A stretch of 64,000 nucleotides of DNA from Eledone cirrhosa (lineage: Eukaryota): positions 395,188,001-395,252,000 of the forward strand of contig OZ024740.1 in NCBI GenBank assembly GCA_964016885.1, read 5' to 3'. The notes beneath the pieces were generated by a model. It searched no databases. It saw only the letters and a list, made by a program, of their open reading frames with translations, and was not told the origin of the DNA. A program made the position numbers and the translations under genes. Below, in pieces: positions 579 to 62,600 of this stretch. Position 1 is the stretch's first letter, and each line of letters starts with the position of its first letter.

Positions 579-1074
579 TAGAAAACATGAGTGGAACAGC
601 AACATCACAACTTACAATTAAGGACAAAATGAAAACACACACGCACATAGAACAAAAAACCAACCAGTAACATGTAAATAAATAAATAAATAAACGAATA
701 TAAACGCACACAGACACCCGGATGTAACACATGCGCAAACTAAGCACACAACACACACACAAAAACAAGATGGCGTAGGACAGAACAAAGGAGAGGCACA
801 AAAAACAAAGAAAAGAATCCCCAGTCACTGAAGAGGTCACAGAATGTGTGACGAAAGAACTTTGACAATATATAAACAACCATCTGGTTGTGGAACCAAC
901 CAACCAACCGGAAATTTATAAATTCCTAAATTTATAAATTTATTATAATAAATTGAAGTGAAAGCATTTGGTGCATGTGTTTCTTATTAGCAACATGACC
1001 CTCCCAAAGTATAACAATATCGGTTTCAACACACGTTTTTAGATAAAGAATCCTGCTAAATAAATTCAGAAACG

Positions 1075-19033: not shown

Positions 19034-19970
19034 TAGAATTAAAGCCCGGCGTTGCTCGGGGTCAGTAAGTTACCAAAGTTAGTTTGCACCACCCATTTTA
19101 TGGCAGCACTTTTTTGTCTGCCAGGCACTGGGTGAATGAATTGCAGACCTGGACTGCCGAAGCAGGAGCTGCGCCAGCAGTGACAATTGTAGTTTCGCCT
19201 ATGGATATTATCTCCGTGCAAAGAAGTGTTGAAATTTATTGTTTCACAGTACTTGCGCAACACACACGTAGACGATGCCAGCCGAACAACAGAGTTGCGA
19301 TGGAGTAGTTCTGCATGGTTGTCTAATGTGTATTTTCTAAATTTAAGACAGTAGGGAGGGGTGTGATATGGGGGAGAGTTAGCTGCTGTTTCTAGCAGGT
19401 TTAGTGACCTCATAGAGGATATCATTGTGTATAGTAAATAAACTGATACTTCTTTCTCCCTCGTTCGTTGAGAGATGTTTTAAAAAAGATTTATCGCTAT
19501 TTGTTTTGTTGTTGAATAAATTTATCTGTTGCTTTTGAATAATTGTTGCTTCGTATGAAATATAATAAGTTCTCTTTGTCATTGAAGTAAATAAATGTTT
19601 GACCGTTCCACACTCAAAAACAAACGTTCTCTCTCTCCCTCACTCTCTTCTCTCTCTCTCAGCTTCATTACTTTCTCTTTTCTTTCCTAAAGGAAGTTTG
19701 TAAGTTTAAGCGTATATAAGAGAAAGTTGCAGCATGTATGTAGGAGTAGAGAGAGGAAATCAGACTGTATTAGAGTGATAAAGCGTCATGTATTTAGTTT
19801 TATCGATTATTTCCGTAATTATGGATGAGTTTTAAATAAATAAATAGTTGGTGATCTAAGTTAGACCATTTATAATATTCTTACAGACTTTGAGTCGAAT
19901 CGGTTTGAAATTCTGCAAATGTATAAACATGGAACATGCACACACACGACAACAATCTGCCTTTTATAGA
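19033..19970 (-). mobile_element. Non-autonomous Helitron
   Basis: The minus strand starts A|TC and ends with the GC hairpin cccgagcaacgccggg followed by CTAG|T. Confidence 0.75.
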
Positions 19971-19971
19971 T

Positions 19972-20158
19972 AATTGTTTCTACTTTAGGCACAAGGCCAG
20001 CAATTACTCAGTACATTACTGGTACTTTATTTTATCGACCACGTAAGGATGAATGGCAAAGTTAACCGCGGCGGGATTTGAACTCAGACCGTAAAGGGAC
20101 GTAACTATGCTGGAAAGCATGGCGTCTGACTCTCTACCGATACTGCTAATCCACTGCC
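19972..20158 (-). mobile_element. tRNA-derived SINE, family 1, with target-site duplication
   Basis: Full head and tail; ttttatagataat occurs on both sides. Confidence 0.88.
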
Positions 20159-20181
20159 TTTTATAGATAATGATATATATA

Positions 20182-20585
20182 TAATTAAGAAAACGCATAT
20201 AACGATATGTGCTTTTACGATTCTCCAGAAAGGCCGGTAGATAGGTAAATATTGCTGATGAGTTGTAACAACAACGAAACTAGTTCAATATTCCTTGTCT
20301 GGCTTTCTGGAGAATAGAGGAAAGGTGTTTCCTCAAAAACCAGTATGACTCTAAAAACCGGTTTGTCTGTGTGTTTACATACAGAATAGCTGGATACTCA
20401 CAGTAAAGTGACCAGTGAAAGACTTGGTACATCTACATATGTATACGTGTGTGTATTCATATGCATACTAGTATTTCAGTATACATATGTGGATGTACAT
20501 TTTTAACTTAATTGTTTAAGCGTCAGTCATACAAAAGTGAGTTACAAACGAAACGAAATTTAATTTCGTTTCGTTATTTGTTTTG

Positions 20586-20586
<1 letters not shown>
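20182..20586 (+). mobile_element. Retrozyme-like structured non-coding element
   Basis: About 400 nt, no ORF, a chain of hairpins plus a canonical HHR, between (AT)n runs. Confidence 0.6.
20220..20315 (+). ncRNA. Canonical type I hammerhead ribozyme
   Basis: aatattg-CTGATGA-gttgt/aaca/acaac-GAAA-ctag-TT-caatatt; stem I is extended by attctccagaaag/ctttctggagaat; predicted cut after 20285. Confidence 0.88.
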
Positions 20587-21420
<834 letters not shown>

Positions 21421-21862: not shown

Positions 21863-22180
21863 ATATAACATCAGAACAAATACTTATTACATATTGCAGA
21901 GTTTTAGAGAAGAAACTAGTCTTTCACCTTTGCAGGGGTCTTCAGAAACACTAAAGAAATTTATAATCTAGAGCTACAGATGTAATTATTTCAAATATAT
22001 GTGGCAAATACCAATATTTGCCTCATAGTCAAAATAATGTTATTGTTAACTTTAGAAAGACAGAACAAATGAATGAATAAACAAGAGAGAGAAATATATT
22101 ATTCCAAACAGAAAGGAAAACTGCATCATTTGACAAAGACAGATATTACTTGAGAGACAAATTTACAGTTGTATACAAAT

Positions 22181-32600: not shown

Positions 32601-32731
32601 AGTTTGTATTGAGTACTTTATATTCGACAGTGGCTAATTCTGGGTTCACCAACATATTTCATCAATCTATATATATATAGATAGAGAGAGAGAGAGATTA
32701 CAGTAATCAAAGTTCAGTTTAAGTCATTTAT

Positions 32732-32780
32732 TTGCTTACAATTGTTTCCTCCAAACCGAGGTTTGGATTCTTCGGAGCAA
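32732..32780 (-). ncRNA. Minimal type I HHR of the Naiad element (left arm)
   Basis: Exact reverse complement of 39253-39301. Confidence 0.75.
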
Positions 32781-34310
32781 CTATTTACTGATCTATATCA
32801 TACTTGACCTCCTTTTCAACCCAAGAGACACATAAAACATATGCGCATATTGATCAACAGTGGGGTGACATTCATCAAATGATATAGCATGGCAATTTAC
32901 ATATAAAGGTTACAGGATAAAAATAAAATAAAAACAAGAGTGAAAATAAAGATAAACATGAAGCGTTGGCAGTCTATGAAGATAAAGCAAGAGGAAAGCT
33001 TAGAGTAGTCAGTGTATGAAACAATCTCCCGTGTAGCATGCACGCGTGTCTTATTTATACATGATTAGAGTGCGTCAGAATGATATTTGCAGGATCAGGC
33101 AGTTGAAGCAGGCAATCGATCTTATTATGTAGGCTGAATTATTAAGTCATTTATTCTCATACATCTGTATGATATACAGTCTCGGATGCGGGGAAACACC
33201 AAAATATCAAAAACTTTCAACATACTATAAACCTTATTGTATCGTAGGCAAGGCCGTACCACTGTCCTTGCTCACACCACCACTCACATAATCCATGAGA
33301 CGCAATATATATAGAGAACACGCGTCTATCGTATAATTCGCGGTGGTTCAGCATATAGTCAAGCTATAAACCGTATCCAGTCGGTTCTTAATTAATATAT
33401 CATGCTGTCCAGATTCCGGAAGTGCCTGAATGACTAAGGGGAATTAATGCGTAAGGGGAGGTAACTAGCTAGTTATCTTAGTTACATTACTATCCTAAAC
33501 TACATTAATGGTGATTCAAATACGTGCCTATCATGTGAAGTTATAACTAATATCTAGAGTATGTTACCCATTTATAGGTTAGAGAGTTGTCCATTAAGAA
33601 GTACAAGGGTGTATATATTAGGATGATTACCATCCATTAATTAAGGGGTGTCATATCTGAACGTTCTATAAGAGGAGTCAGACTCTCAAGTCACTGCTCC
33701 ATGCAAATGTAATATAACAGTAGGACCTGGTATGGTCCCACTATTATATATGCTACCCGGTAGGCTCCGGGTCATTGCATGCCTGCATCTCCAGTAAATC
33801 TTCGGTATGGTCCGGAGATCCAATCTCTCATATAAATGCACTAGTCTGGCCATCAAGCAATAGACAACCCCCGTCTCAAATATAAATCAATTATGTATCA
33901 CATCTACAAGCTAGAGTGGAGTCTATTAATAGGTACTAAAGGAGTTCACATCAAGATGATTACGTGCATAATTCATTGAACTGATCGCTTACAGTGTATA
34001 TTCACATAACAATACGATTATCTATCTAATCATCAATCTATCTCTTGGTGGTAATCCATGCACAGGACTATGCTATCGCAACCAGTACCGTGTCCCCAAT
34101 TTATACTAATCTTATATTTGTGCAATGCAGAATAAGTAGTCCACGGTCGAGATATCAGTATTAGAGGTACAAGGGGGTATTCCCAGGGTAGGTGGTACTA
34201 AAATGCTGTCAGTATTATCTTTAGAGTATAGAGATGGGTGTGGATGTGAGGTGTAAGGTGTGCTACTGATGTTAATTGCTAGGGGTGGTGCCGATTCCAG
34301 TCTGACATTA

Positions 34311-35915
34311 TTATATATAGGGTTTAAAGTTTTGGAACGAGTGTCGGAAGCGGTGTTGGCAATTTGCGAACACTTCTGATTTTTTATTAAGGAGATTATG
34401 TTTAGAGAAGATGATAGTATGGGTCTCTAGTAGACAGAGGTTACAAAATTTATCAGGTGGTTTGTACGATGTTGCACTACCTACCACTTCCCATTTAAGT
34501 GTATATATTTTATTTTTAGTTTTTAGATAGTGTATGTAGCTAGATAGTGAAGTGGAGTTGGCTAGACTGTGTTTTTTGAAAGAGTGGAGGTGCGAATTGT
34601 ATCTAGTTTTGAAGCAGTTAGAAGTGGAGCCTATGTAGGTTTCAGAAGAGCTGTTAGTTGTGACTGTACATGAGTATATGATATCCTTGGTTAAGCATTT
34701 TTTATCTAAAGGGCAGGTTCTACTTGATCTACAGTTACAATTACTCTGGGTGCTAGTCTGCCGGTTACTATGCTGTGTAGAAGTTTGGATGTTAGCTATA
34801 GGGTTATGGTTATGCGGGTTGTGGTGCGCAGCGTTAATGTTTATACTAGTGCTATTACTATTATTTCCATTGATATTCCGGTTATTTGTTATAATGTTAC
34901 TTTGACTGTTATTTTGAATGTTATTTTGAAGGTTTATCGACCGTTGTGATTTAGTTTGTTGGAAGTAAGAATTAATTTTTCTTTTATTTGTACTAGCTAT
35001 GTGGTATGCTAAGTTAGGCGTAGTAGAGTATGAGATCTTAATAGTGTTTTTGTTTAAAAGGCCGTGGTACCTGTGGCCGGATGGGAAGTGTTTATCTAGT
35101 AGTGAGAAGAAAGCCCTAGGAAGGTTGGTAGAGACGTTTAAATTGAAAGGAGGGTTGAAAAATGTATTATTTCTTCTTCTATTTCTGTTTTTTATGTCTG
35201 GTGATTTGTTTCCTTTAATGTTCCTATGGTCATTTCTGTGGTGCGGGTTACTCTTGTTGTTACAATCCCTATTAGTGTGTGTGCAGTTGCTATTCCTATT
35301 ATTAAATTTTCCCATGGACATGTTGTGTGAAATTATGTTGTAGCTATGTGTTTTTGTAGGTAGGAACTCTATCCCTGTATTATGGCCTGATCTAGCTAAT
35401 GCCTGATTATAATACTGCGAGTTATTGTTAAATGTGTTTATGTCATAGGATAGATTAGAGATTCTATTAGATACTCCCTTAGAGATAGAGTTCAATATAG
35501 ATTTAGGGTGGTTAGACTTGGTATCTACGTAGATGAGTTTTTCATTAGGTTTGTAGAAAGGTGCATATATCATTGAGTCTAAGTAGAGTGTGGCGTCTAG
35601 GAAGTTGACGTTTTTTGTGTTTTTGTCCATGGTAATACTAAGGTTAAAGTTTTTGAATGTTTTGTGCAATAGTTTTCTAGTCCTTTCTATATTGAATTTT
35701 TTATAGTCTATAAGTAGAAGTGCATCGTCGCGATACAAACCACCGCTGAGGTACGGAAGTTCCCTGTGGATTAGGTTAAGTAAGTATAGGCCAACCAAAT
35801 CAGTGACCTGCGCCGAGTCACTAGACCCCATAGTAATGTCGAAGTTGTTTTGCGTATCCTTGCGGGTCCATAATTGGTCCTCAAAGGTGATTATTGTTTT
35901 ACGGGCCGCAAGTAT
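34311..35915 (-). CDS. 5'-truncated PLE RT plus GIY-YIG endonuclease (left arm)
   Basis: Open frame FDITMGS, GLYRDD, FLDATL, SNHP, FFNPP, CNC..CPL, IIY..YIG, CNLC; lacks the RT N-terminus. Confidence 0.85.
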   Translation of the reverse strand: MLAARKTIITFEDQLWTRKDTQNNFDITMGSSDSAQVTDLVGLYLLNLIHRELPYLSGGLYRDDALLLIDYKKFNIERTRKLLHKTFKNFNLSITMDKNTKNVNFLDATLYLDSMIYAPFYKPNEKLIYVDTKSNHPKSILNSISKGVSNRISNLSYDINTFNNNSQYYNQALARSGHNTGIEFLPTKTHSYNIISHNMSMGKFNNRNSNCTHTNRDCNNKSNPHHRNDHRNIKGNKSPDIKNRNRRRNNTFFNPPFNLNVSTNLPRAFFSLLDKHFPSGHRYHGLLNKNTIKISYSTTPNLAYHIASTNKRKINSYFQQTKSQRSINLQNNIQNNSQSNIITNNRNINGNNSNSTSININAAHHNPHNHNPIANIQTSTQHSNRQTSTQSNCNCRSSRTCPLDKKCLTKDIIYSCTVTTNSSSETYIGSTSNCFKTRYNSHLHSFKKHSLANSTSLSSYIHYLKTKNKIYTLKWEVVGSATSYKPPDKFCNLCLLETHTIIFSKHNLLNKKSEVFANCQHRFRHSFQNFKPYI

Positions 35916-37722
35916 TAAACACAAGATTTACCTTAAGCAATGGGGAAATACGGGTGAAGTGATTGAATGGTTCAAAAATATCATAGATAACAAGGATAAA
36001 AAATTTATTCAATTTGATATCAACTCTTACTACACCTCTATTTCCCCTATCCTACTAAATAAGGCACTTATAATGGCCATGGACAATAGTGACTTGACTA
36101 GACCCCAGATTGATGTCATACTTGCGGCCCGTAAAACAATAATCACCTTTGAGGACCAATTATGGACCCGCAAGGATACGCAAAACAACTTCGACATTAC
36201 TATGGGGTCTAGTGACTCGGCGCAGGTCACTGATTTGGTTGGCCTATACTTACTTAACCTAATCCACAGGGAACTTCCGTACCTCAGCGGTGGTTTGTAT
36301 CGCGACGATGCACTTCTACTTATAGACTATAAAAAATTCAATATAGAAAGGACTAGAAAACTATTGCACAAAACATTCAAAAACTTTAACCTTAGTATTA
36401 CCATGGACAAAAACACCAAAAACGTCAACTTCCTAGACGCCACACTCTACTTAGACTCAATGATATATGCACCTTTCCACAAACCTAATGAAAAACTCAT
36501 CTACGTAGATACCAAGTCTAACCACCCTAAATCTATATTGAACTCTATCTCTAAGGGAGTATCTAATAGAATCTCTAATCTATCCTATGACATAAACACA
36601 TTTAACAATAACTCGCAGTATTATAATCAGGCATTAGCTAGATCAGGCCATAATACAGGGATAGAGTTCCTACCTACAAAAACACATAGCTACAACATAA
36701 TTTCACACAACATGTCCATGGGAAAATTTAATAATAGGAATAGCAACTGCACACACACTAATAGGGATTGTAACAACAAGAGTAACCCGCACCACAGAAA
36801 TGACCATAGGAACATTAAAGGAAACAAATCACCAGACATAAAAAACAGAAATAGAAGAAGAAATAATACATTTTTCAACCCTCCTTTCAATTTAAACGTC
36901 TCTACCAACCTTCCTAGGGCTTTCTTCTCACTACTAGATAAACACTTCCCATCCGGCCACAGGTACCACGGCCTTTTAAACAAAAACACTATTAAGATCT
37001 CATACTCTACTACGCCTAACTTAGCATACCACATAGCTAGTACAAATAAAAGAAAAATTAATTCTTACTTCCAACAAACTAAATCACAACGGTCGATAAA
37101 CCTTCAAAATAACATTCAAAATAACAGTCAAAGTAACATTATAACAAATAACCGGAATATCAATGGAAATAATAGTAATAGCACTAGTATAAACATTAAC
37201 GCTGCGCACCACAACCCGCATAACCATAACCCTATAGCTAACATCCAAACTTCTACACAGCATAGTAACCGGCAGACTAGCACCCAGAGTAATTGTAATT
37301 GTAGATCAAGTAGAACCTGCCCTTTAGATAAAAAATGCTTAACCAAGGATATCATATACTCATGTACAGTCACAACTAACAGCTCTTCTGAAACCTACAT
37401 AGGCTCCACTTCTAACTGCTTCAAAACTAGATACAATTCGCACCTCCACTCTTTCAAAAAACACAGTCTAGCCAACTCCACTTCACTATCTAGCTACATA
37501 CACTATCTAAAAACTAAAAATAAAATATATACACTTAAATGGGAAGTGGTAGGTAGTGCAACATCGTACAAACCACCTGATAAATTTTGTAACCTCTGTC
37601 TACTAGAGACCCATACTATCATCTTCTCTAAACATAATCTCCTTAATAAAAAATCAGAAGTGTTCGCAAATTGCCAACACCGCTTCCGACACTCGTTCCA
37701 AAACTTTAAACCCTATATATAA
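35916..37722 (+). CDS. 5'-truncated Naiad-type PLE RT plus GIY-YIG endonuclease (right arm)
   Basis: QW.NT..VIEWF, FIQFDI..Y.SI, FDITMGS, GLYRDD, SNHP, HFP..H, CNCR...CPL..KCL, DIIY...YIG, CNLCL.E; no internal stops. The first 37 aa of the track ORF are antisense read-through from the left arm. Confidence 0.9.
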
Positions 37723-39252
37723 TAATGTCAGACTGGAATCGGCACCACCCCTAGCAATTAACATCAGTAGCACACCTTACACCTCACATCCACACCCATC
37801 TCTATACTCTAAAGATAATACTGACAGCATTTTAGTACCACCTACCCTGGGAATACCCCCTTGTACCTCTAATACTGATATCTCGACCGTGGACTACTTA
37901 TTCTGCATTGCACAAATATAAGATTAGTATAAATTGGGGACACGGTACTGGTTGCGATAGCATAGTCCTGTGCATGGATTACCACCAAGAGATAGATTGA
38001 TGATTAGATAGATAATCGTATTGTTATGTGAATATACACTGTAAGCGATCAGTTCAATGAATTATGCACGTAATCATCTTGATGTGAACTCCTTTAGTAC
38101 CTATTAATAGACTCCACTCTAGCTTGTAGATGTGATACATAATTGATTTATATTTGAGACGGGGGTTGTCTATTGCTTGATGGCCAGACTAGTGCATTTA
38201 TATGAGAGATTGGATCTCCGGACCATACCGAAGATTTACTGGAGATGCAGGCATGCAATGACCCGGAGCCTACCGGGTAGCATATATAATAGTGGGACCA
38301 TACCAGGTCCTACTGTTATATTACATTTGCATGGAGCAGTGACTTGAGAGTCTGACTCCTCTTATAGAACGTTCAGATATGACACCCCTTAATTAATGGA
38401 TGGTAATCATCCTAATATATACACCCTTGTACTTCTTAATGGACAACTCTCTAACCTATAAATGGGTAACATACTCTAGATATTAGTTATAACTTCACAT
38501 GATAGGCACGTATTTGAATCACCATTAATGTAGTTTAGGATAGTAATGTAACTAAGATAACTAGCTAGTTACCTCCCCTTACGCATTAATTCCCCTTAGT
38601 CATTCAGGCACTTCCGGAATCTGGACAGCATGATATATTAATTAAGAACCGACTGGATACGGTTTATAGCTTGACTATATGCTGAACCACCGCGAATTAT
38701 ACGATAGACGCGTGTTCTCTATATATATTGCGTCTCATGGATTATGTGAGTGGTGGTGTGAGCAAGGACAGTGGTACGGCCTTGCCTACGATACAATAAG
38801 GTTTATAGTATGTTGAAAGTTTTTGATATTTTGGTGTTTCCCCGCATCCGAGACTGTATATCATACAGATGTATGAGAATAAATGACTTAATAATTCAGC
38901 CTACATAATAAGATCGATTGCCTGCTTCAACTGCCTGACCCTGCAAATATCATTCTGACGCACTCTAATCATGTATAAATAAGACACGCGTGCATGCTAC
39001 ACGGGAGATTGTTTCATACACTGACTACTCTAAGCTTTCCTCTTGCTTTATCTTCATAGACTGCCAACGCTTCATGTTTATCTTTATTTTCACTCTTGTT
39101 TTTATTTTATTTTTATCCTGTAACCTTTATATGTAAATTGCCATGCTATATCATTTGATGAATGTCACCCCACTGTTGATCAATATGCGCATATGTTTTA
39201 TGTGTCTCTTGGGTTGAAAAGGAGGTCAAGTATGTTATAGATCAGTAAATAG

Positions 39253-39301
39253 TTGCTCCGAAGAATCCAAACCTCGGTTTGGAGGAAACAATTGTAAGCA
39301 A
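39253..39301 (+). ncRNA. Minimal type I HHR of the Naiad element (right arm)
   Basis: ttgct-CCGAAGA-a-tccaaacc/tc/ggtttgga-g-GAAA-caattg-TA-agcaa; palindromic stem III; AATAAA follows immediately. Confidence 0.75.
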
Positions 39302-39504
39302 ATAAATGACTTAAACTGAACTTTGATTACTGTAATCTCTATATAACTGCTCTGTAAAACAACTGATGTTATTACATTGAGCTATTTATCTTACTGGTAA
39401 TAGGATAGTAATTAATGACTATCTCTCACTATTTAGGGTTTGTATATATAATATATTACCATTAAAGGTTTTATTGCATACATAACCATAAATAGTACCC
39501 TTAA

Positions 39505-42825: not shown

Positions 42826-43188
42826 ATTTTGTTTCTGAATTTGTTTAGCAAGATTCTTTATCTGAAAATGTGTGTTGAAACCGATATTGCTATACTTTGG
42901 GAGGGTCATGTTGCCAATAAGAAACACACGCACCAGTTGCTTTCACTCCAATTTATTATAAATAAAATTTATAAATTTAAGAATTTATAAATTTCCGTTT
43001 GGTTGGTCACTGAAGAGGTCACAGAATGTGTGACGAAAGAACTTTGACAAAATATGAACAACCGTCCGGCTGTGGTACCAACCAACCAACCAACCGGAAA
43101 TTTATAAATTTAATTTATAATAAATTGGTGTGAAAGCGACTGGTGCGTGTGTTTCTTATTGGCAACATGACCCTCCCAAAGTATAACA
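42826..43188. mobile_element. PLE family A mini-insertion, two inverted 3' ends
   Basis: Minus arm 42826-43005; plus arm 43006-43188 begins at the HHR (43006-43048); (AT)n flanks. Confidence 0.85.
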
Positions 43189-45283: not shown

Positions 45284-45759
45284 TTTCGTTTCTGAATTTG
45301 TTTAGCAAGATTCTTTATCTGAAAACATGTGTTGAAACCGATATTGTTATACTTTGGGAGGGTCATGTTGCCAATAAGAAACACACGCACCAGTTGCTTT
45401 CACTTCAATTTATTATAATAAATTAAATTTATAAATTTAGGAATTTATAAATTTCCGGTTGGTTGGTTGGTACCACAACCAGATGATTGTTTATATATTG
45501 TCAAAGTTCTTTCGTCACACATTCTGTGACCTCTTCAGTGACTGGGGATTCTTTTCTTTGTTTTTGTGCCTCTTCTTTGTTCTGTCCTACGCCATCTTTT
45601 TTTTGTGTGTGTTGTGTGCTTAGTTTGCACATGTGTTCCAACCAACCAACCGGAAATTTATAAATTCCTAAATTTATAAATTTAATTTATTATAATAAAT
45701 TGAAGTGAAAGCAACTGGTGCGTGTGTTTCTTATTGGCAACATGACCCTCCCAAAGTAT

Positions 45760-47606: not shown

Positions 47607-50600
47607 GTGTACTGGGTGGTTTTTGTTGTGACACCTACATGACCACTTTACAGTGTAGGCTGGACACCTTTTGTTGTGACACCTACATGACCACTTTACA
47701 GTGTGGGCTGGGCACTTTTTGTTGTGACACCTACATGACCACTTTACAGCATGGGCTGGGCACTTTTTGTTGTGACACCTACATGACCACTTTACAGTGT
47801 ATGCTGGACACTTTTTGTTGTGACACCTACATGACCACCTTACAGTGTGGGCTGGACACTTTTTGTTGTGACACCTACATGACCACTTTACAGTGTGGAC
47901 TGGGCACTTTTTCTTGTGACACCTACATGACCACTTTACAGTGTAGGCTGGACACTTTTTGTTGTGACACCTACATGACCACTTTACAGTGTGGGCTGGG
48001 CACTTTTTGTTGTGACACCTACATGACCACTTTACAGTGTGGGCTGGGCCCTTTTTGTTGTGACACCTACATGACCACTTTACAGCGTGGGCTGGGCACT
48101 TTTTGTTGACACCTACATGACCACTTTACAGTGTGGGCTGGGCACTTTTTGTTGTGACACCTACATGACCACTTTACAGTGTAGGCTGGACACTTTTTGT
48201 TGTGACACCTACATGACCACTTTACAGTGTAGGCTGGACACTTTTTGTTGTGACACCTACATGACCACTTTACAGCGTGGGCTGGGCATTTTTTGTTGTG
48301 ACACCTACATGACCACTTTACAGTGTGGGCTGGGCACTTTTTGTTGTGACACCTACATGACCACTTTACAGCGTGGGCTGGACACTTTTTGTTGTGACAC
48401 CTTCATGACCACTTTACAGTGTGGGCTGGACACTTTTTGTTGTGACACCTACATGGCCACTTTACAGTGTGGGCTGGACACTTTTTGTTGTGACACCTAC
48501 ATGACCACTTTACAGTGTGGGCTGGTCACTTTTGGTTGTGACACCTACATGACCACTTTACAGTGTGGGCTGGACACTTTTTGTTGTGACACCTACATGG
48601 CCACTTTACAGTGTGGGCTGGACACTTTTTGTTGTGACACCTACATGACCACTTTATAGTGTGGGCTGGGCACTTTTTGTTGTGACACCTACATGACCAC
48701 TTTACAATGTGGGCAGGACACTTTTTGTTGTGACACCTACATGACCCCTTTATAGTGTGGGCTGGGCACTTTTTGTTGTGACACCTACATGACCACTTTA
48801 CAGTGTGGGCAGGACAATTTTTGTTGTGACACCTACATGACCACTTTACAGTGTGGGCTGAGCACGTTGTGTTGTGACACCTACATGACCACTTTACAGT
48901 GTGGGCTGGGCACTTTTTGTTGTGACACCTACATGACCACTTTATAGTGTGGGCTGGGCACTTTTTGTTGTGACACCTACATGACCACTTTACAGTGTGG
49001 GCAGGACAATTTTTGTTGTGACACCTACATGACCACTTTACAGTGTGGGCTGAGCACGTTGTGTTGTGACACCTACATGACCACTTTACAGTGTGGGCTG
49101 GACACTTTTTGTTGTGACACCTACATGACCACTTTACAGTGTGGGCTGGGCGTTTTTGTTGTGACACCTACATGACCACTTTACAGTGTGGGCTGGGTGC
49201 TTTTTGTTGTGACACCTACATGACCACTTTACAGTGTGGGCTGGGCACTTTTTGTTGTGACACCTACATGACCACTTTACAGTGTGGGCTGGGCACTTTT
49301 TGTTGTGAAACCTACATGACCACTTTACAGTGTGGGCTGGGCACTTTTTGTTGTGACACCTACATGACCACTTTACAGTGTAGGCTGGACACTTTTTGTT
49401 GTGACACCTACATGACCACTTTACAGTGTGGGCTGGGCACTTTTTGTTGTGACACCTACATGACCACTTTACAGTGTGGGCTGGGCACTTTTTGTTGTGA
49501 CACCTACATGACCACTTTACAGCGTGGGCTGGGCACTTTTTGTTGACACCTACATGACCACTTTACAGCGTGGGCTGGGCACTTTTTGTTGTGACACCTA
49601 CATGACCACTTTGCAATGTAGGCTGGACACTTTTTGTTGTGACACCTACATGACCACTTTACAGTGTAGGCTGGACACTTTTTGTTGTGACACCTACATG
49701 ACCACTTTGCAGTGTGGGCTGGACACTTTTTGTTGTGACACCATCATGACCACTTTACAGTGTGGGCTGGTCACTTTTTGTTGTGACACCTACATGACCA
49801 CTTTACAGTGTGGGCTGGGCACTTTTTGTTGTGAAACCTACATGAACACTTTACAGTGTGGGCTGGACACTTTTTGTTGTGACACCTACATGACCACTTT
49901 ACAGTGTAGGCTGGACACTTTTTGTTGTGACACCTACATGACCACTTTACAGCATGGGCTGGGCACTTTTTGTTGTGACACCTACATGACCACTTTACAG
50001 TGTATGCTGGACACTTTTTGTTGTGACACCTACATGACCACCTTACAGTGTGGGCTGGACACTTTTTGTTGTGACACCTACATGACCACTTTACAGTGTG
50101 GACTGGGCACTTTTTCTTGTGACACCTACATGACCACTTTACAGTGTAGGCTGGACACTTTTTGTTGTGACACCTACATGACCACTTTACAGTGTGGGCT
50201 GGGCACTTTTTGTTGTGACACCTACATGACCACTTTACAGTGTAGGCTGGAACTTTTTGTTGTGACACCTACATGACCACTGTACAGTGTGGGCTGGGCA
50301 CTTTTTGTTGTGACACCTACATGACCACTTTACAGCGTGGGCTGGGCACTTTTTGTTGTGGCACCTACATGACCACTTTACAATGTAGGCTGGACACTTT
50401 TTGTTGTGACACCTACATGACCACTTTGCAGCGTGGGCTGGGCACTTTTTGTTGTGACACCTACATGACCACTTTACAATGTAGGCTGGACACTTTTTGT
50501 TGTGACACCTACATGACCACTTTACAGTGTAGGCTGGACACTTTTTGTTGTGACACCTACATGACCACTTTGCAGTGTGGGCTGGACACTTTTTGTTGTG

Positions 50601-53600
50601 ACACCTTCATGACCACTTTACAGTGTGGGCTGGTCACTTTTTGTTGTGACACCTACATGACCACTTTACAGTGTGGGCTGGGCACTTTTTGTTGTGACAC
50701 CTTCATGACCACTTTACAGTGTGGGCTGGTCACTTTTTGTTGTGACACCTACATGACCACTTTACAGTGTGGGCTGGTCTCTTTTTGTTGTGACACCTAC
50801 ATGACCACTTTACAGTGTGGGCTGGTCACTTTTTGTTGTGACACCTACATGACCACTTTACAGTGTGGGCTGGGCACTTTTTGTTGTGAAACCTACATGA
50901 CCACTTTGCAGTGTGGGCTGGACACTTTTTGTTGTGACACCATCATGACCACTTTACAGTGTGGGCTGGTCACTTTTTGTTGTGACACCTACATGACCAC
51001 TTTACAGTGTGGGCTGGGCACTTTTTGTTGTGAAACCTACATGAACACTTTACAGTGTGGGCTGGACACTTTTTGTTGTGACACCTACATGACCACTTTA
51101 CAGTGTAGGCTGGACACTTTTTGTTGTGACACCTACATGACCACTGTACAGTGTGGGCTGGGCACTTTTTGTTGTGACACCTACATGACCACTTTACAGC
51201 GTGGGCTGGGCACTTTTTGTTGTGACACCTACATGACCACTTTACAATGTAGGCTGGACACTTTTTGTTGTGACACCTACATGACCACTTTGCAGCGTGG
51301 GCTGGGCACTTTTTGTTGTGACACCTACATGACCACTTTACAATGTAGGCTGGACACTTTTTGTTGTGACACCTACATGACCACTTTACAGTGTAGGCTG
51401 GACACTTTTTGTTGTGACACCTACATGACCACTTTGCAGTGTGGGCTGGACACTTTTTGTTGTGACACCTTCATGACCACTTTACAGTGTGGGCTGGTCA
51501 CTTTTTGTTGTGACACCTACATGACCACTTTACAGTGTGGGCTGGGCACTTTTTGTTGTGACACCTTCATGACCACTTTACAGTGTGGGCTGGTCACTTT
51601 TTGTTGTGACACCTACATGACCACTTTACAGTGTAGGCTGGTCACTTTTTGTTGTGACACCTACATGACCACTTTACAGTGTGGGCTGGTCACTTTTTGT
51701 TGTGACACCTACATGACCACTTTACAGTGTGGGCTGGGCACTTTTTGTTGTGAAACCTACATGAACACTTTACAGTGTGGGCTGGACACTTTTTGTTGTG
51801 ACACCTACATGACCACTTTACAGTGTAGGCTGGACACTTTTTGTTGTGACACCTACATGACCACTGTACAGTGTGGGCTGGGCACTTTTTGTTGTGACAC
51901 CTACATGACCACTTTACAGCGTGGGCTGGGCACTTTTTGTTGTGACACCTACATGACCACTTTACAATGTAGGCAGGACACTTTTTGTTGTGACACCTAC
52001 ATGACCACTTTGCAGTGTGGGCTGGACACTTTTTGTTGTGACACCTACATGACCACTTTACAGTGTGGACTGGGCACTTTTTGTTGTGACACCTACATGA
52101 CCACTTTACAGTGTAGGCTGGACACTTTTTGTTGTTACACCTACATGACCACTTTACAGTGTGGGCTGGGCACTTTTTGTTGTGACACCTAAATGACCAC
52201 TTTACAGTGTGGGCTGGGCACTTTTTGTTGTGACACCTACATAACCACTTTACAGTGTGGGCTGGGCACTTTTTGTTGACACCTACATGACCATTTTACA
52301 GCGTAGGCTGGACACTTTTTGTTGTGACACCTACATGAGCACTTTACAGTGTGGGCTGGACATTTTTTGTTGTGACACCTACATGGCCACTTTACAGTGT
52401 GGGCTGGACACTTTTTGTTGTGACACCTACACGACCACTTTACAGTGTGGGCTGAGTACGATTTGTTGTGACACCTACATGGCCACTTTACAGTGTGGGC
52501 TGGGAATTTTTTGTTGTGACACCTACATGACCACTTTGCAGTGTGGGCTGGATACTTTTTGTTGTGACACCTTCATGACCACTTTACAGTGTGGGCTGGT
52601 CACTTTTTGTTGTGACACCTACATGACCACATTACAGTATGGGCTGGACACTTTTTGTTGTGACACTTACATGACCACTTTACAGTGTGGGCTGGGCATT
52701 TTTGTTGTGACACTTACATGACCACTTTACAGTGTAGGCTGGACACCTTTTGTTGTGACACCTACATGACCACTTTACAGTGTGGGCTGGGCACTTTTTG
52801 TTGTGACACCTACATGACCACTTTACAGCATGGGCTGGGCACTTTTTGTTGTGACACCTACATGACCACTTTACAGTGTGGGCTGGACACTTTTTGTTGT
52901 GAAACCTACATGACCACTTTACAGTGTCGGCTGGGCACTTTTTGTTGTGAAACCTACATGACCACTTTACAGTGTGGGCTGGGCACTTTTTGTTGTGACA
53001 CCTACATGACCACTTTACAGTGTAGGCTGGACACTTTTTGTTGTGACACCTACATGACCACTTTACAGTGTGGGCTGGACACTTTTTGTTGTGACACCTA
53101 CATGACCACTTTACAGTGTGGGCTGGGCACTTTTTGTTGTGAAACCTACATGACCACTTTACAGTGTGGGCTGGGCACTTTTTTTTGTGACACCTACATG
53201 ACCACTTTACAGTGTAGGCTGGACACTTTTTGTTGTGACACCTACATGACCACTTTACAGTGTGGGCTGGACACTTTTTGTTGTGACACCTACATGACCA
53301 CTTTACAGTGTGGGCTGGGCACTTTTTGTTGTGAAACCTACATGACCACTTTACAGTGTGGGCTGGGCACATTTTGTTGTGACACCTACATGACCACTTT
53401 ACAGTGTAGGCTGGACACTTTTTGTTGTGACACCTACATGACCACTTTACAGTGTGGGCTGGGCACTTTTTGTTGTGACACCTACATGACCACTTTACAG
53501 TGTGGGCTGGGCACTTTTCGTTGACACCTACATGACCACTTTACAGTGTAGGCTGGACACTTTTTGTTGTGACACCTACATGACCACTTTACAGTGTGGG

Positions 53601-56600
53601 CTGGACACTTTTTGTTGTGACACCTACATGGCCACTTTACAGTGTGGGCTGGACACTTTTTGTTGTGACACCTACACGACCACTTTACAGTGTGGGCTGA
53701 GTACGTTTTGTAGTGACACCTACATGGCCACTTTACAGTGTGGGCTGGGAATTTTTTGTTGTGACACCTACATAACCACTTTGCAGTGTGGGCTGGATAT
53801 TTTTGTTGTGACACCTTCATGACCACTTTACAGTGTGGGCTGGTCACTTTTTGTTGTGACACCTACATGACCACATTACAGTATGGGCTGGACACTTTTT
53901 GTTGTGACACTTACATGACCACTTTACAGTGTGGGCTGGGCATTTTTGTTGTGACACTTACATGACCACTTTACAGTGTAGGCTGGACACCTTTTGTTGT
54001 GACACCTACATGACCACTTTACAGTGTGGGCTGGGCACTTTTTGTTGTGACACCTACATGATCACTTTACAGCATGGGCTGGGCACTTTTTGTTGTGACA
54101 CCTACATGACCACTTTACAGTGTATGCTGGACACTTTTTGTTGTGACACCTACATGACCACCTTACAGTGTGGGCTGGACACTTTTTGTTGTGACACCTA
54201 CATGACCACTTTACAGTGTGGACTGGGCACTTTTTGTTGTGACACCTACATGACCACTTTACAGTGTAGGCTGGACACTTTTTGTTGTGACACCTACATG
54301 ACCACTTTACAGTGTGGGCTGGGCACTTTTTGTTGTGACACCTACATGACCACTTTACAGTGTGGGCTGGGCACTTTTTGTTGTGACACCTACATGACCA
54401 CTTTACAGTGTAGGCTGGACACTTTTTGTTGTGACACCTACATGACCACTTTACAGTGTGGGCTGGGCACTTTTTGTTGTGACACCTACATGACCACTTT
54501 ACAGTGTGGGCTGGACACCTTTTGTTGTGACACCTACATGGCCACTTTACAGTGTGGGCTGGACACTTTTTGTTGTGACACCTACATGACCACTTTACAG
54601 TGTGGGCTGGTCACTTTTTATTGTGACACCTACATGACCACTTTACAGTGTGGGCTGGACACTTTTTGTTGTGACACCTACATGGCCACTTTACAGTGTG
54701 GGCTGGACACTGTAATGACCACCTTACAGTGTGGGCTAGACACTTTTTGTTGTGACACCTACATGATCACTTTACAGTGTGGACTGGGCACTTTTTGTTG
54801 TGACACCTACATGGGCTGGGCACTTTTTGTTGTGACACCTACATGACCACTTTACAGTGTATGCTGGACACTTTTTGTTGTGACACCTACATGACCACCT
54901 TACAGTGTGGGCTGGACACTTTTTGTTGTGACACCTACATGACCACTTTACAGTGTAGGCTGGACACTTTTTGTTGTGACACCTACATGACCACTTTACA
55001 GTGTGGGCTGGGCACTTTTTGTTGTGACACCTACATGACCACTTTACAGTGTGGCACTTTTTGTTGACACCTACATGACCACTTTACAGTGTGGGCTGGG
55101 CACTTTTTGTTGTGACACCTACATGACCACTTTACAGCATGGGCTGGGCACTTTTTGTTGTGACACCTACATGACCACTTTACAGTGTATGCTGGACATT
55201 TTTGTTGTGACACCTACATGACCACCTTACAGTGTGGGCTGGACACTTTTTGTTGTGACACCTACATGACCACTTTACAGTGTGGACTGGGCACTTTTTG
55301 TTGTGACACCTACATGACCACTTTACAGCGTGGGCTGGGCACTTTTTGTTGTGACACCTACATGACCACTTTACAGTGTAGGCTGGACACTTTTTGTTGT
55401 GACACCTACATGACCACTTTGCAGTGTGGGCTGGACACTTTTTGTTGTGACACCTACATGACCACTTTACAGTGTGGGCAGGACACTTTTTGTTGTGACA
55501 CCTACATGACCACTTTTCAGTGTGGGCTGAGCACGTTGTGTTGTGACACCTACATGACCACTTTACAGTGTGGGCTGGACACTTTTTGTTGTAACACCTA
55601 CATGACCACTTTACAGCGTGGGCTGGGCAATTTTTGTTGTGACACCTACATGACCACTTTACAGTGTAGGCTGGACACTTTTTGTTGTGACACCTACATG
55701 ACCACTTTACAGTGTAGGCTGGACACTTTTTGTTGTGACACCTACATGACCACTTTGCAGTGTGGGCTGGACACTTTTTGTTGTGACACCTTCATGACCA
55801 CTTTACAGTGTGGGCTGGTCACTTTTTGTTGTGACACCTACATGACCACTGTACAGTGTGGGCAGGACACTTTTTGTTGTGACACCTACATCACCACTTT
55901 ACAGTGTAGGCTGGACACTTTTTGTTGTGACACCTACATGACCACTTTACAGCGTGGGCTGAGCACGTTGTGTTGTGACACCTACATGACCACTTTACAG
56001 TGTGGGCTGGACACTTTTTGTTGTGACACCTACATGACCACTTTACAGCGTGGGCTGAGCACGTTGTGTTGTGACACCTTCATGACCACTTTACAGTGTG
56101 GGCTGGTCACTTTTTGTTGTGACACCTACATGACCACTGTACAGTGTGGGCAGGACACTTTTTGTTGTGACACCTACATGACCACTTTACAGTGTAGGCT
56201 GGACACTTTTTGTTGTGACACCTACATGACCACTTTACAGCGTGGGCTGAGCACGTTGTGTTGTGACACCTACATGGCCACTTTACAGTGTGGGCTGGGA
56301 ATTTTTTGTTGTGACACCTACATGACCACTTTGCAGTGTGGGCTGGATATTTTTGTTGTGACACCTTCATGACCACTTTACAGTGTGGGCTGGTCACTTT
56401 TTGTTGTGACACCTACATGACCACATTACAGTATGGGCTGGACACTTTTTGTTGTGACACTTACATGACCACTTTACAGTGTGGGCTGGGCATTTTTGTT
56501 GTGACACTTACATGACCACTTTACAGTGTAGGCTGGACACCTTTTGTTGTGACACCTACATGACCACTTTACAGTGTGGGCTGGGAACTTTTTGTTGTGA

Positions 56601-59600
56601 CACCTACATGACCACTTTACAGCATGGGCTGGGCACTTTTTGTTGTGACACCTACATGACCACTTTACAGTGTATGCTGGACACTTTTTGTTGTGACACC
56701 TACATGACCACCTTACAGTGTGGGCTGGACACTTTTTGTTGTGACACCTACATGACCACTTTACAGTGTGGACTGGGCACTTTTTGTTGTGACACCTACA
56801 TGACCACTTTACAGTGTAGGCTGGACACTTTTTGTTGTGACACCTACATGACCACTTTACAGTGTGGGCTGGGCACTTTTTGTTGTGACACCTACATGAC
56901 CACTTTACAGTGTGGGCTGGGCACTTTTTGTTGTGACACCTACATGACCACTTTACAGTGTAGGCTGGACACTTTTTGTTGTGACACCTACATGACCACT
57001 TTACAGTGTGGGCTGGGCACTTTTTGTTGTGACACCTACATGACCACTTTACAGTGTGGGCTGGACACCTTTTGTTGTGACACCTACATGGCCACTTTAC
57101 AGTGTGGGCTGGACACTTTTTGTTGTGACACCTACATGACCACTTTACAGTGTGGGCTGGTCACTTTTTATTGTGACACCTACATGACCACTTTACAGTG
57201 TGGGCTGGACACTTTTTGTTGTGACACCTACATGGCCACTTTACAGTGTGGGCTGGACACTGTAATGACCACCTTACAGTGTGGGCTAGACACTTTTTGT
57301 TGTGACACCTACATGATCACTTTACAGTGTGGACTGGGCACTTTTTGTTGTGACACCTACATGGGCTGGGCACTTTTTGTTGTGACACCTACATGACCAC
57401 TTTACAGTGTATGCTGGACACTTTTTGTTGTGACACCTACATGACCACCTTACAGTGTGGGCTGGACACTTTTTGTTGTGACACCTACATGACCACTTTA
57501 CAGTGTAGGCTGGACACTTTTTGTTGTGACACCTACATGACCACTTTACAGTGTGGGCTGGGCACTTTTTGTTGTGACACCTACATGACCACTTTACAGT
57601 GTGGCACTTTTTGTTGACACCTACATGACCACTTTACAGTGTGGGCTGGGCACTTTTTGTTGTGACACCTACATGACCACTTTACAGCATGGGCTGGGCA
57701 CTTTTTGTTGTGACACCTACATGACCACTTTACAGTGTATGCTGGACATTTTTGTTGTGACACCTACATGACCACCTTACAGTGTGGGCTGGACACTTTT
57801 TGTTGTGACACCTACATGACCACTTTACAGTGTGGACTGGGCACTTTTTGTTGTGACACCTACATGACCACTTTACAGCGTGGGCTGGGCACTTTTTGTT
57901 GACACCTACATGATCACTTTACAGCGTGGGCTGGGCACTTTTTGTTGTGACACCTACATGACCACTTTACAGTGTAGGCTGGACACTTTTTGTTGTGACA
58001 CCTACATGACCACTTTGCAGTGTGGGCTGGACACTTTTTGTTGTGACACCTACATGACCACTTTACAGTGTGGGCAGGACACTTTTTGTTGTGACACCTA
58101 CATGACCACTTTACAGTGTGGGCTGAGCACGTTGTGTTGTGACACCTACATGACCACTTTACAGTGTGGGCTGGACACTTTTTGTTGTAACACCTACATG
58201 ACCACTTTACAGCGTGGGCTGGGCAATTTTTGTTGTGACACCTACATGACCACTTTACAGTGTAGGCTGGACACTTTTTGTTGTGACACCTACATAACCA
58301 CTTTACAGTGTAGGCTGGACAATTTTTGTTGTGACACCTACATGACCACTTTGCAGTGTGGGCTGGACACTTTTTGTTGTGACACCTTCATGACCACTTT
58401 ACAGTGTGGGCTGGTCACTTTTTGTTGTGACACCTACATGACCACTGTACAGTGTGGGCAGGACACTTTTTGTTGTGACACCTACATGACCACTTTACAG
58501 TGTAGGCTGGACACTTTTTGTTGTGACACCTACATGACCACTTTACAGCGTGGGCTGAGCACGTTGTGTTGTGACACCTACATGACCACTTTACAGTGTG
58601 GGCTGGACACTTTTTGTTGTGACACCTACATGACCACTTTACAGCGTGGGCTGAGCACGTTGTGTTGTGACACCTTCATGACCACTTTACAGTGTGGCTG
58701 GTCACTTTTTGTTGTGACACCTACATGACCACTGTACAGTGTGGGCAGGACACTTTTTGTTGTGACACCTACATGACCACTTTACAGTGTAGGCTGGACA
58801 CTTTTTGTTGTGACACCTACATGACCACTTTACAGCGTGGGCTGAGCACGTTGTGTTGTGACACCTACATGGCCACTTTACAGTGTGGGCTGGGAATTTT
58901 TTGTTGTGACACCTACATGACCACTTTGCAGTGTGGGCTGGATATTTTTGTTGTGACACCTTCATGACCACTTTACAGTGTGGGCTGGTCACTTTTTGTT
59001 GTGACACCTACATGACCACATTACAGTATGGGCTGGACACTTTTTGTTGTGACACTTACATGACCACTTTACAGTGTGGGCTGGGCATTTTTGTTGTGAC
59101 ACTTACATGACCACTTTACAGTGTAGGCTGGACACCTTTTGTTGTGACACCTACATGACCACTTTACAGTGTGGGCTGGGCACTTTTTGTTGTGACACCT
59201 ACATGACCACTTTACAGCATGGGCTGGGCACTTTTTGTTGTGACACCTACATGACCACTTTACAGTGTATGCTGGACACTTTTTGTTGTGACACCTACAT
59301 GACCACCTTACAGTGTGGGCTGGACACTTTTTGTTGTGACACCTACATGACCACTTTACAGTGTGGACTGGGCACTTTTTGTTGTGACACCTACATGACC
59401 ACTTTACAGTGTAGGCTGGACACTTTTTGTTGTGACACCTACATGACCACTTTACAGTGTGGGCTGGGCACTTTTTGTTGTGACACCTACATGACCACTT
59501 TACAGTGTGGGCTGGGCACTTTTTGTTGTGACACCTACATGACCACTTTACAGTGTAGGCTGGACACTTTTTGTTGTGACACCTACATGACCACTTTACA

Positions 59601-62600
59601 GTGTGGGCTGGGCACTTTTTGTTGTGACACCTACATGACCACTTTACAGTGTGGGCTGGACACCTTTTGTTGTGACACCTACATGGCCACTTTACAGTGT
59701 GGGCTGGACACTTTTTGTTGTGACACCTACATGACCACTTTACAGTGTGGGCTGGTCACTTTTTATTGTGACACCTACATGACCACTTTACAGTGTGGGC
59801 TGGACACTTTTTGTTGTGACACCTACATGGCCACTTTACAGTGTGGGCTGGACACTGTAATGACCACCTTACAGTGTGGGCTAGACACTTTTTGTTGTGA
59901 CACCTACATGATCACTTTACAGTGTGGACTGGGCACTTTTTGTTGTGACACCTACATGGGCTGGGCACTTTTTGTTGTGACACCTACATGACCACTTTAC
60001 AGTGTATGCTGGACACTTTTTGTTGTGACACCTACATGACCACCTTACAGTGTGGGCTGGACACTTTTTGTTGTGACACCTACATGACCACTTTACAGTG
60101 TAGGCTGGACACTTTTTGTTGTGACACCTACATGACCACTTTACAGTGTGGGCTGGGCACTTTTTGTTGTGACACCTACATGACCACTTTACAGTGTGGC
60201 ACTTTTTGTTGACACCTACATGACCACTTTACAGTGTGGGCTGGGCACTTTTTGTTGTGACACCTACATGACCACTTTACAGCATGGGCTGGGCACTTTT
60301 TGTTGTGACACCTACATGACCACTTTACAGTGTATGCTGGACATTTTTGTTGTGACACCTACATGACCACCTTACAGTGTGGGCTGGACACTTTTTGTTG
60401 TGACACCTACATGACCACTTTACAGTGTGGACTGGGCACCTTTTGTTGTGACACCTACATGACCACTTTACAGCGTGGGCTGGGCACTTTTTGTTGACAC
60501 CTACATGATCACTTTACAGCGTGGGCTGGGCACTTTTTGTTGTGACACCTACATGACCACTTTACAGTGTAGGCTGGACACTTTTTGTTGTGACACCTAC
60601 ATGACCACTTTGCAGTGTGGGCTGGACACTTTTTGTTGTGACACCTACATGACCACTTTACAGTGTGGGCAGGACACTTTTTGTTGTGACACCTACATGA
60701 CCACTTTACAGTGTGGGCTGAGCACGTTGTGTTGTGACACCTACATGACCACTTTACAGTGTGGGCTGGACACTTTTTGTTGTAACACCTACATGACCAC
60801 TTTACAGCGTGGGCTGGGCAATTTTTGTTGTGACACCTACATGACCACTTTACAGTGTAGGCTGGACACTTTTTGTTGTGACACCTACATAACCACTTTA
60901 CAGTGTAGGCTGGACAATTTTTGTTGTGACACCTACATGACCACTTTGCAGTGTGGGCTGGACACTTTTTGTTGTGACACCTTCATGACCACTTTACAGT
61001 GTGGGCTGGTCACTTTTTGTTGTGACACCTACATGACCACTGTACAGTGTGGGCAGGACACTTTTTGTTGTGACACCTACATGACCACTTTACAGTGTAG
61101 GCTGGACACTTTTTGTTGTGACACCTACATGACCACTTTACAGCGTGGGCTGAGCACGTTGTGTTGTGACACCTACATGACCACTTTACAGTGTGGGCTG
61201 GACACTTTTTGTTGTGACACCTACATGACCACTTTACAGCGTGGGCTGAGCACGTTGTGTTGTGACACCTTCATGACCACTTTACAGTGTGGCTGGTCAC
61301 TTTTTGTTGTGACACCTACATGACCACTGTACAGTGTGGGCAGGACACTTTTTGTTGTGACACCTACATGACCACTTTACAGTGTAGGCTGGACACTTTT
61401 TGTTGTGACACCTACATGACCACTTTACAGCGTGGGCTGAGCACGTTGTGTTGTGACACCTACATGACAACTTTACAGTGTGGGCTGGACACTTTTTGTT
61501 GTGACACATACATGACCACTTTACAGCGTGGGCTGAGCACGTTGTGTTGTGACACCTTCATGACCACTTTACAGTGTGGGCTGGTCACTTTTTGTTGTGA
61601 CACCTACATGACCACTGTACAGTGTGGGCAGGACACTTTTTGTTGTGACACCTATATGACCACTTTACAGTGTAGGCTGGACACTTTTTGTTGTGACACC
61701 TACATGACCACTTTACAGTGTGGGCTGAGCACGTTGTGTTGTGACACCTACATGACCACTTTACAGTGTGGGCTGGACACTTTTTGTTGTGACACCTACA
61801 TGACCACTTTACAGCGTGGGCTGGTCACTTTTTGTTGTCACACCTTCATGACCACTTTACAGTGTGGGCTGGTCACTTTTTGTTGTGACACCTACATGAC
61901 CACTTTACAGTGTGGGCTGGATACTTTTTGTTGTGACACCCTCATGACCACTTTACAGTGTGGGCTTGGCACTTTTTGTTGACACCTACATGACCACTTT
62001 ACAGTGTGGGCTGGGCACTTTTTGTTGTGACACTTACATGACCACTTTACAGTGTGGGCTGGATAGTTTTTGTTGTGACACCTACATGAACATTTTACAG
62101 TGTGGGCAGGACACTTTTTGTTGTGACACCTACATAATCACGTTACAGTGTGGGCTGAGCACGTTTCGTTGTGACACCTACATGGCCACTTTACAGTGTG
62201 GGCTGGGAATTTTTTGTTGTGACATCTACATGACCACTTTACAGTGTTGGCTGGATACTTTTTGTTGTGACACCCTCATGACCACTTTACAGTGTGAGCT
62301 TGGCACTTTTTGTTGACACCTACATGACCACTTTACAGTGTGGGATGGGCACTTTTTGTTGTGACACTTACATGACCACTTTACAGTGTGGGCTGGATAG
62401 TTTTTGTTGTGACACATACATGAACATTTTACAGTGTGGGCTTGGCACTTTTTGTTGACACCTACATGACCACTTTACAGTGTGGGCTGGGCACTTTTTG
62501 TTGTGACACTTACATGACCACTTTACAGTGTGGGCTGGATAGTTTTTGTTGTGACACCTACATGAACATTTTACAGTGTGGGCAGGACACTTTTTGTTGT

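Follow-up and report, generated by a model that had tools for sequence, protein, structure and literature searches.

A 466-nt retrozyme family of Eledone cirrhosa, probably propagated by a borrowed Penelope-type enzyme that reverse-transcribes its RNA circles

The metazoan non-LTR retrozymes are non-coding, low-GC, self-paired tandem units of 150-450 nt, each with one type I hammerhead ribozyme, which occur as dimers to multimers with target duplications longer than 4 bp in genomes that also hold autonomous Penelope-like elements (PLEs), and whose RNA circles have been proven by northern blot (Cervera & de la Pena, 2020; PMC7229834). The axolotl HHR_Amex1, with a 1-bp stem III and a palindromic tetraloop, requires dimers, ribozymes of this build cutting weakly as monomers and well as dimers (PMC7229834). 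It has been hypothesized in print that animal retrozymes move by way of a circle which a PLE enzyme copies (PMC7229834; PMC7761336). More recently, retrozymes with units of 51-972 nt and local tandem expansion have been described as non-autonomous PLE derivatives from co-occurrence and homology to pseudo-LTRs (pLTRs); in that work the mechanism of movement is called open, and eight of nine frog retrozyme dimers failed to cleave in vitro (Li, Clavereau & Pollet, 2026; 10.64898/2026.07.22.740005). As for PLEs themselves, insertions of the Hydra and Neptune clades pair a 5'-truncated inverted copy with a tail at one end and are biased to (TA)n (Craig et al., 2021; PMC8557442), and the purified Poseidon PLE of the green anole starts cDNA in vitro at two internal sites bounding a tail of 30-40 nt, extends both strands of an AT-rich target, ends downstream of its ribozyme and begins at an AC-rich start that lacks homology to the target (Frangieh et al., 2024; PMC11167929).

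The family analyzed here is represented by one copy in a 64,000-nt stretch of the Eledone cirrhosa genome (assembly GCA_964016885.1, contig OZ024740.1, positions 395,188,001 to 395,252,000, forward strand), hereafter the window. It agrees with the metazoan retrozymes in each of the features of unit, layout, target and accompanying PLEs listed above, and with HHR_Amex1 in its stem III, and its unit of 466 nt lies just above their size range and within that of Li et al. (2026). Paired inverted arms, fixed priming sites and an editing footprint, all present here, are not described in the accessible text of Cervera and de la Pena (2020), whereas the circles proven there by blotting are here predicted from genomic copies. 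The partner class concluded by Li et al. (2026) is the same as ours, reached here via insertion anatomy. Like Poseidon, the family has two putative internal starts bounding a tail, an AT-rich target, extension of both strands and ends downstream of the ribozyme; unlike that autonomous element, its tail is ~70 nt, its starts are U/A-rich with short AT microhomology, and each arm may repeat the whole unit. It shares the inverted copy, single tail and target bias of the Hydra and Neptune insertions, from which it differs in having no ORF and arms made only of a short repeated unit. Based on sequence, we class the family as a non-LTR retrozyme new to that known group, whose likely mode of spread is the copying of an RNA circle by a reverse transcriptase borrowed from a Penelope-type element.

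The family, its unit and its ribozyme

The window copy (Table 1) is 99% identical to the family unit, shows 0 differences over 374 compared columns from the locus at C1:361.85 Mb, and amounts to 0.86 of a tandem unit with one type I hammerhead, unit positions 303-368 being absent (position 1 is the first base past the ribozyme cut, window 20286). The inverted remnant overlaps the start of the main arm by 2 nt. A preliminary description, made from the letters alone, had proposed an all-hairpin retrozyme of ~400 nt, which fits the window copy, but the real unit is larger. Its statement that no ORF is present stands (longest stop-free stretch, 60 codons), every hairpin that it listed was recovered in a fold far more stable than shuffles (z = -10.0), and of the (AT)n that it placed on both sides the right-hand run was borne out, whereas the left-hand run is short, with 20183-20189 being left over, inverted, from the second end of the element. 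Because it has only one ribozyme, and so falls short of the two or more consecutive complete ribozymes by which Li et al. (2026) recognize active retrozymes, the window copy cannot, judging from its structure, release a monomer circle; it is a recent dead end. The copy starts 11 nt past a SINE-like repeat (19970-20172) lying between 18-nt direct repeats (19958-19975 and 20155-20172), and a 48-nt satellite elsewhere in the window (47620-63085, 322 copies) has a unit resembling part of a SINE of the window. The SINEs of this genome appear to be of cephalopod type.

Table 1. Features of the retrozyme copy in the window
Feature	Position	Strand	Detail or basis
5'-truncated retrozyme copy	20188..20587	+	unit 369-466 then 1-302; 400/466 nt
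Inverted 7-nt second-arm remnant, ends at site B (unit 222-228)	20183..20189	-	sequence
Hammerhead, type I: stem I bulged, loop II of 6 nt, stem III of 1 bp with a palindromic loop	20237..20308	+	Rfam HH9; covariation
Hairpin chain (20317-20334, 20366-20385, long hairpin 20427-20498)	20286..20512	+	folds
Site B (unit 228-233), where inverted arms of the family end	20513..20518	+	locus anatomy
Tail of ~70 nt separating sites B and A, with hairpin 20547-20577	20519..20587	+	
Site A (unit 299-302), 3' end of the window copy	20584..20587	+	genome-wide exact matches
(AT)n target microsatellite	20586..20840	.	sequence

Across the 3.0 Gb searched, the 405-nt query gave 130 matches at 96-100% identity, many of them 466 bp apart (39 scored of 691 candidate places). 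Exact patterns, whose counts are lower bounds, found at least 5,145 intact junctions of the ribozyme and, from site A directly adjoining (AT), no fewer than 2,114 insertions, with 0 matches for either control, and site B followed by ATATAT occurs 766 times on the forward strand. The dispersed, tandem and circularly permuted copies that the preliminary description had proposed to look for thus number in the thousands, in support of its retrozyme reading. The 119 regions examined in detail were the 56 best BLAST matches (biased to the window copy's subfamily), 23 junction-pattern loci, consecutive within the initial 57 Mb of C1, and 40 site-A loci (20 selected for two ends separated by at least ~1 kb, 20 as they came in the list); 118 were retained, ~6% of the insertions, and one (L231) was dropped as having no arm of at least 45 nt. 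No LTR-type layout was seen in family loci. The full unit has a GC content of 35% and no reading frame longer than 60 codons, repeats with a period of 465-473 depending on locus, and, when folded as a circle as had been proposed, reaches -158 kcal/mol (z = -12, 67% paired).

In the ribozyme, stem I (20249-20254/20286-20291), the core CUGAUGA (20255-20261), stem II (20262-65/20272-75) and GAAA (20276-79) place the predicted cut at GUU^C, 20285/20286. Stem III consists of just one A-U pair, closed by a CUAG loop within the palindrome AACUAGUU, and because of this the hammerhead, which is present where the preliminary description had put it, is not the fully canonical one claimed there when taken as a monomer; pairing of two ribozyme copies at the palindrome was computed at -8.0 kcal/mol. 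Rfam HH9 matches the region at 38.6 bits (E 2.7e-8), below its gathering score of 52, and at gathering level the whole window gave no match. Across the 43 ribozyme variants seen at least twice in this and a sister family, stems I and II covary, the pairs of stem I holding in 40-43 variants and three of the four pairs of stem II in 42-43, each with changes on both sides, while one stem II pair is often mismatched in the sister family and the core, the loop II UAAYAA and the stem I bulge are constant. Within the main family, changes that break pairs are fewer among inherited (15/54) than private ones (88/172; p = 0.003), but in the ribozyme domain itself the inherited changes show no significant shortage (3/54 vs 13/172, p = 0.77). 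By itself, a loose hammerhead core pattern has 8 matches in the window against 2.2 expected. Other hammerhead cores, at window 828-856, 43010-43038, 45510-45538 and 21922-21945, lie in short inverted-arm repeats ending in (AT)n, which we read from their sequence as further PLE-type end families.

A second ribozyme pattern has 2,119 genome matches, and nearly all of the 100 listed belong to the sister family (L149-L178, L206-L210), whose unit of 427-442 nt is 67% alike over ~240 nt. The sister family has the same two-arm layout, with sites near 221 and 272 and a tail of ~50 nt, and in some of its units GUU and GUA cut triplets alternate. A third repeat of ~457 nt, in (AT)n at L105 (3030-3490, minus strand), shares part of its unit with both families and has a GC-rich middle; no hammerhead core and no ARAGORN tRNA was found in it, and its fold is not unusual (z = -1.3).

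Insertion anatomy and the copied template

At 77 of the 118 loci, two back-to-back arms are present, one ending at site A (unit 299-302) and the other at site B (227-233), about 70 nt apart, and both ending in (AT)n. One-armed loci number 28, of which nine retain, like the window copy, a short inverted piece of the missing arm's end, and the remaining layouts are rare (A+A, 1; B+B, 2; other, 10, some clipped by region limits). The two-armed loci are flanked by (AT)n on both sides in 48 cases, and target duplications were scored at 10 of the 77 (~6 of them in unique sequence, 12-13 nt), with 19 loci unresolved. Where the arms meet, the junctions are variable and mostly share 0-5 nt; no inverted junction was found twice among the loci displayed. 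Contigs of four sequencing runs provide cover and show loose (AT) ends at sites A and B only. This arrangement matches the inverted copy plus tail of PLE insertions (PMC8557442) and the paired starts on both target strands seen in vitro (PMC11167929). From it, we infer that site A is the first and site B the second start of reverse transcription, and that the site A end joins the target through AT microhomology.

The arms also bear on the template. At least one ribozyme junction is crossed by 121 of 138 arms and two or more by 51, so that the family, in contrast to the window copy, does contain the consecutive complete ribozymes of active retrozymes in the sense of Li et al. (2026). Median arm length is 1.2-1.4 units, 277 of 280 junctions are exact, and the arms end 230-300 nt beyond the ribozyme. 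Arms that cross junctions, junctions that are exact and ends that lie far past the ribozyme argue together for a circle, a nicked circle or an uncut multimer as template, and exclude, on this anatomy, a linear monomer copied from its cut end. Only two genome matches end at the cut site, both at one locus, compared with the 5,145 intact junctions; this locus (L091/L179-L180, C4:325.77 Mb), the only one with an arm end at the ribozyme cut, is duplicated in inverted orientation around a short (AT)n, and as a single case the end was rejected as a footprint of cleavage.

A nicked circle, that is, a cleaved monomer held closed by stem I whose nick the enzyme jumps on every turn, has some appeal, given that in the fold the linear monomer has its two ends paired with each other by stem I and the extension of that stem, that two of the 280 junctions carry a 1-nt indel, and that it predicts a uniform haplotype equally well. 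Yet the near-universal exactness of the junctions, the lack of any accumulation of arm 5' ends at the cut (of 138, 18 fall within the unit's first tenth vs 13.8 expected) and the predominance of covalent circles in studied retrozymes (PMC7229834) make it a decidedly unlikely template. A circle of a single monomer is the probable template.

Uniform units and A>G changes

In 79 loci, with two satellite-like arrays excluded, units of one arm diverge by 0.29%, those of opposite arms by 0.28% and those of different loci by 2.6%, and at C1:30.83 Mb, where the arms measure 6.9 and 13 units, all 18 full units are identical. One haplotype per locus fits repeated copying of one monomer. Long identical arms are nevertheless no proof of a rolling circle, because units also duplicate in DNA. 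Among the first 56 loci, two (C1:95.94 and C1:375.63 Mb) have higher-order repeats; short periodic patterns occur at several other loci, a variant of period 3 is seen at C1:56.38 Mb, and the partial variants, present in some units of a locus and 123 in number, include some common to both arms. Duplication at the DNA level is therefore real. Array length did not correlate significantly with age (rho -0.11, p = 0.28), and the two arm lengths correlate weakly (rho 0.26, p = 0.07; 0.31, p = 0.03 without the two arrays). The insertion at C1:95.94-95.97 Mb (L063-L067) has grown to a satellite-like array of ~50 units and that at C1:375.63 Mb (L061-L062) to one of ~19 units.

A distinct signal emerges from the mutation spectrum, counted on the RNA (ribozyme) strand with terminal-branch changes classed by the units that they cover. 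Among changes shared by all covering units of a locus, A>G accounts for 42 of 82 and T>C for 8 (24 and 7 of 47 where both arms cover), as against A>G in 52/493 of the changes confined to single units and 12/123 of the partial ones. Without two loci with clusters of A>G, the share is 25/62. In the sister family, the excess is weaker (10/38 vs 47/417, p = 0.017). The base 5' of the locus-wide sites is T in 24, A in 12, C in 4 and G in 2, an upstream G being rarer than at single-unit A>G sites (2/42 vs 15/52, p = 0.003); this matches an ADAR-like 5' neighbour bias, ADAR editing being depleted at sites with an upstream G (PMC5625713). In the two cluster loci, A>G makes up 12 of 14 and 5 of 6 changes (p = 1e-10 and 7e-5): at L248, 12 A>G changes are repeated in consecutive units of one arm, and at L247, A233G and a cluster at 340-357 are present on both arms. 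Genome-wide, the motifs tested for these two clusters have no matches outside the loci concerned (2 and 4 matches there). A further A>G cluster, at C1:30.83 Mb, was rejected as locus-specific since it occurs in a lineage of seven loci; edited variants can therefore also propagate. As a separate observation, single-unit variants of the 118 loci, read on the RNA strand, comprise 103 G>A changes but 56 C>T (p = 0.001), the G>A recurring at unit 24-27, a surplus that may reflect cytosine deamination or first-strand cDNA errors.

The excess of A>G is attributed with good confidence, on these spectra, to RNA editing, which could take place on the circle or on a long duplex of both arms in a precursor. 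Selection for G-U pairs likewise favours A>G in stems, and the circle could be real with the excess arising from such selection, or from polarisation error, and not from ADAR. Such an origin would be in keeping with inherited changes that preserve pairs, with internal tree branches that lack an A>G excess (23 A>G and 20 T>C of 99; midpoint root, polarity uncertain) and with sites that show no 3'-neighbour preference. It is nonetheless improbable when set against an excess that stays in loops alone (locus-wide 11/20 vs single-unit 19/196), the dense clusters, the depletion of upstream G, and recurrence on separate branches (A5G six times, A345G six and A411G five).

Taken as editing, the same changes also weigh on a second rival, in which a non-autonomous PLE parasite is copied from an uncut, linear multi-unit transcript and later homogenised by duplication or gene conversion, the ribozyme being incidental. 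In vitro, uncut RNA is the main PLE substrate, and ribozyme cleavage is unneeded for PLE insertion (PMC11167929); the weakness of stem III, the DNA-level duplication and the partial variants found across arms point the same way. Editing of a linear multimer should, however, be patchy between units, yet the partial variants are not rich in A>G (12/123), and L247 presents a conflict of register: in arm A, the change at 233 comes from the starting unit and those at 340-357 from the unit before, whereas in arm B both come from one unit. To yield this, a linear template would have to carry the same edits in two of its units, or its donor would have to be missing from the assembly, and a circle would need neither, the argument with a cluster checked as unique resting on one locus in one haploid assembly. 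Considering also that no inverted junction recurs among the loci displayed and that the ribozyme stems covary between families only 67% alike, copying from a linear multimer is an unlikely account, and the single-monomer circle is retained.

Penelope-like elements and the proposed cycle

Very young autonomous PLEs are, by their sequences, present in the genome. The window itself holds a young Hydra-type PLE (32693-39340, its right arm running on to about 39509) with 3.2-kb perfect inverted arms, an ORF for reverse transcriptase and GIY-YIG endonuclease, a tail of ~170 nt, the motifs DKT and CxCX5C of Hydra-type elements (PMC8557442) and a hammerhead-like motif in which CCGAAGA replaces CUGANGA; a Pfam search of its ORF gave no match. 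Intact 830-aa copies of this type occur elsewhere in the genome, together with an 832-aa relative, and a Neptune-type family has a 777-aa ORF with a Neptune-type linker (L237 2452-4794; L251-L280), all 150 of 150 scored copies being identical over the endonuclease query. Besides long microsatellites, the 3' UTR of this Neptune family includes a stretch that resembles a hammerhead but has an altered core.

None of these elements was seen joined to the retrozyme. Units joined to a PLE ORF or other coding sequence were found at 0 of 118 loci, and no contiguous ORF for reverse transcriptase and GIY-YIG lies at family units in these loci; the case in which the preliminary description would have been wrong, a mere 3' UTR of an ORF-bearing PLE, did not materialize. 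Comparison of the unit with Hydra-830, Hydra-832 and Neptune-777, three families among tens of thousands of reverse transcriptase-like candidates, gave low-complexity matches only and no homologous pLTR, and a profile of both retrozyme families matched no PLE end within 1.28 Mb of genome DNA. A retrozyme-Neptune chimera at L254 was rejected, (AT)n and other DNA lying between the two. That the family is a pseudo-LTR, or the 3' end of an autonomous PLE whose ORF-bearing copies went unsampled, would accord with its PLE-type ends, with the relation of frog retrozymes to pLTRs (10.64898/2026.07.22.740005) and with a sample of 118 of at least 2,114 loci. This reading is highly improbable in view of what lies upstream of any unit position (more unit, the inverted arm or unique flank), of the lack of any direct junction to PLE sequence, and of the copy in a Neptune 3' UTR at L237, which sits inside an internal (AT)n and is missing in 30 further Neptune copies. 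The insertion anatomy being of PLE type, the earlier suggestion of a PLE parasite is upheld, and we hold with high confidence, on this anatomy, that the family is a retrozyme moved by PLE machinery.

In the cycle that we infer from sequence, structural conservation, insertion anatomy and mutational spectra, multi-unit loci would be transcribed, and adjacent hammerheads would pair via the palindromic stem III and excise 466-nt monomers, to be closed by a host ligase into circles that would cut themselves poorly when alone. ADAR would edit some adenosines in the paired circle or the precursor. A PLE protein, probably a dimer, would then nick both (AT)n strands ~12 nt apart and prime cDNA at site A from one strand and at site B from the other, whereupon both enzymes would circle the same template for a fraction of a turn to many turns and the two cDNAs would be joined at short microhomology; some arrays would later gain units through DNA-level duplication. 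As a whole, this route from dimer-assisted cutting to a twin-primed rolling circle is considered the best explanation, and a reasonably probable one. A stronger version, to which we lean slightly, has a single ADAR-edited circle on which two Penelope-type enzymes roll at once, with A-to-I edits carried into the germline, in every repeat, as a main source of the family's evolution.

A literature search, with subscription papers and supplements outside its scope, found no earlier account of the family or of genomic editing footprints in retrozymes; within the literature searched and the accessible text of the sources, neither paired arms with fixed priming sites nor editing marks fixed in the genome had been described. 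The young family supplies specifics in the form of exact priming sites, a 12-13-nt staggered cut and a two-arm product, its editing marks act as a barcode of the template molecule, and a 466-nt RNA together with three active candidate enzymes makes the model open to testing in vitro. For RNA-templated insertion tools, a PLE enzyme able to turn a small non-coding circle into tandem copies would also be of interest. If the edited-circle reading is true, these loci would provide the first genomic evidence of rolling-circle reverse transcription of animal retrozymes, would point to RNA editing that feeds back into genome sequence, and would mean that the family records its own life cycle in the genome.
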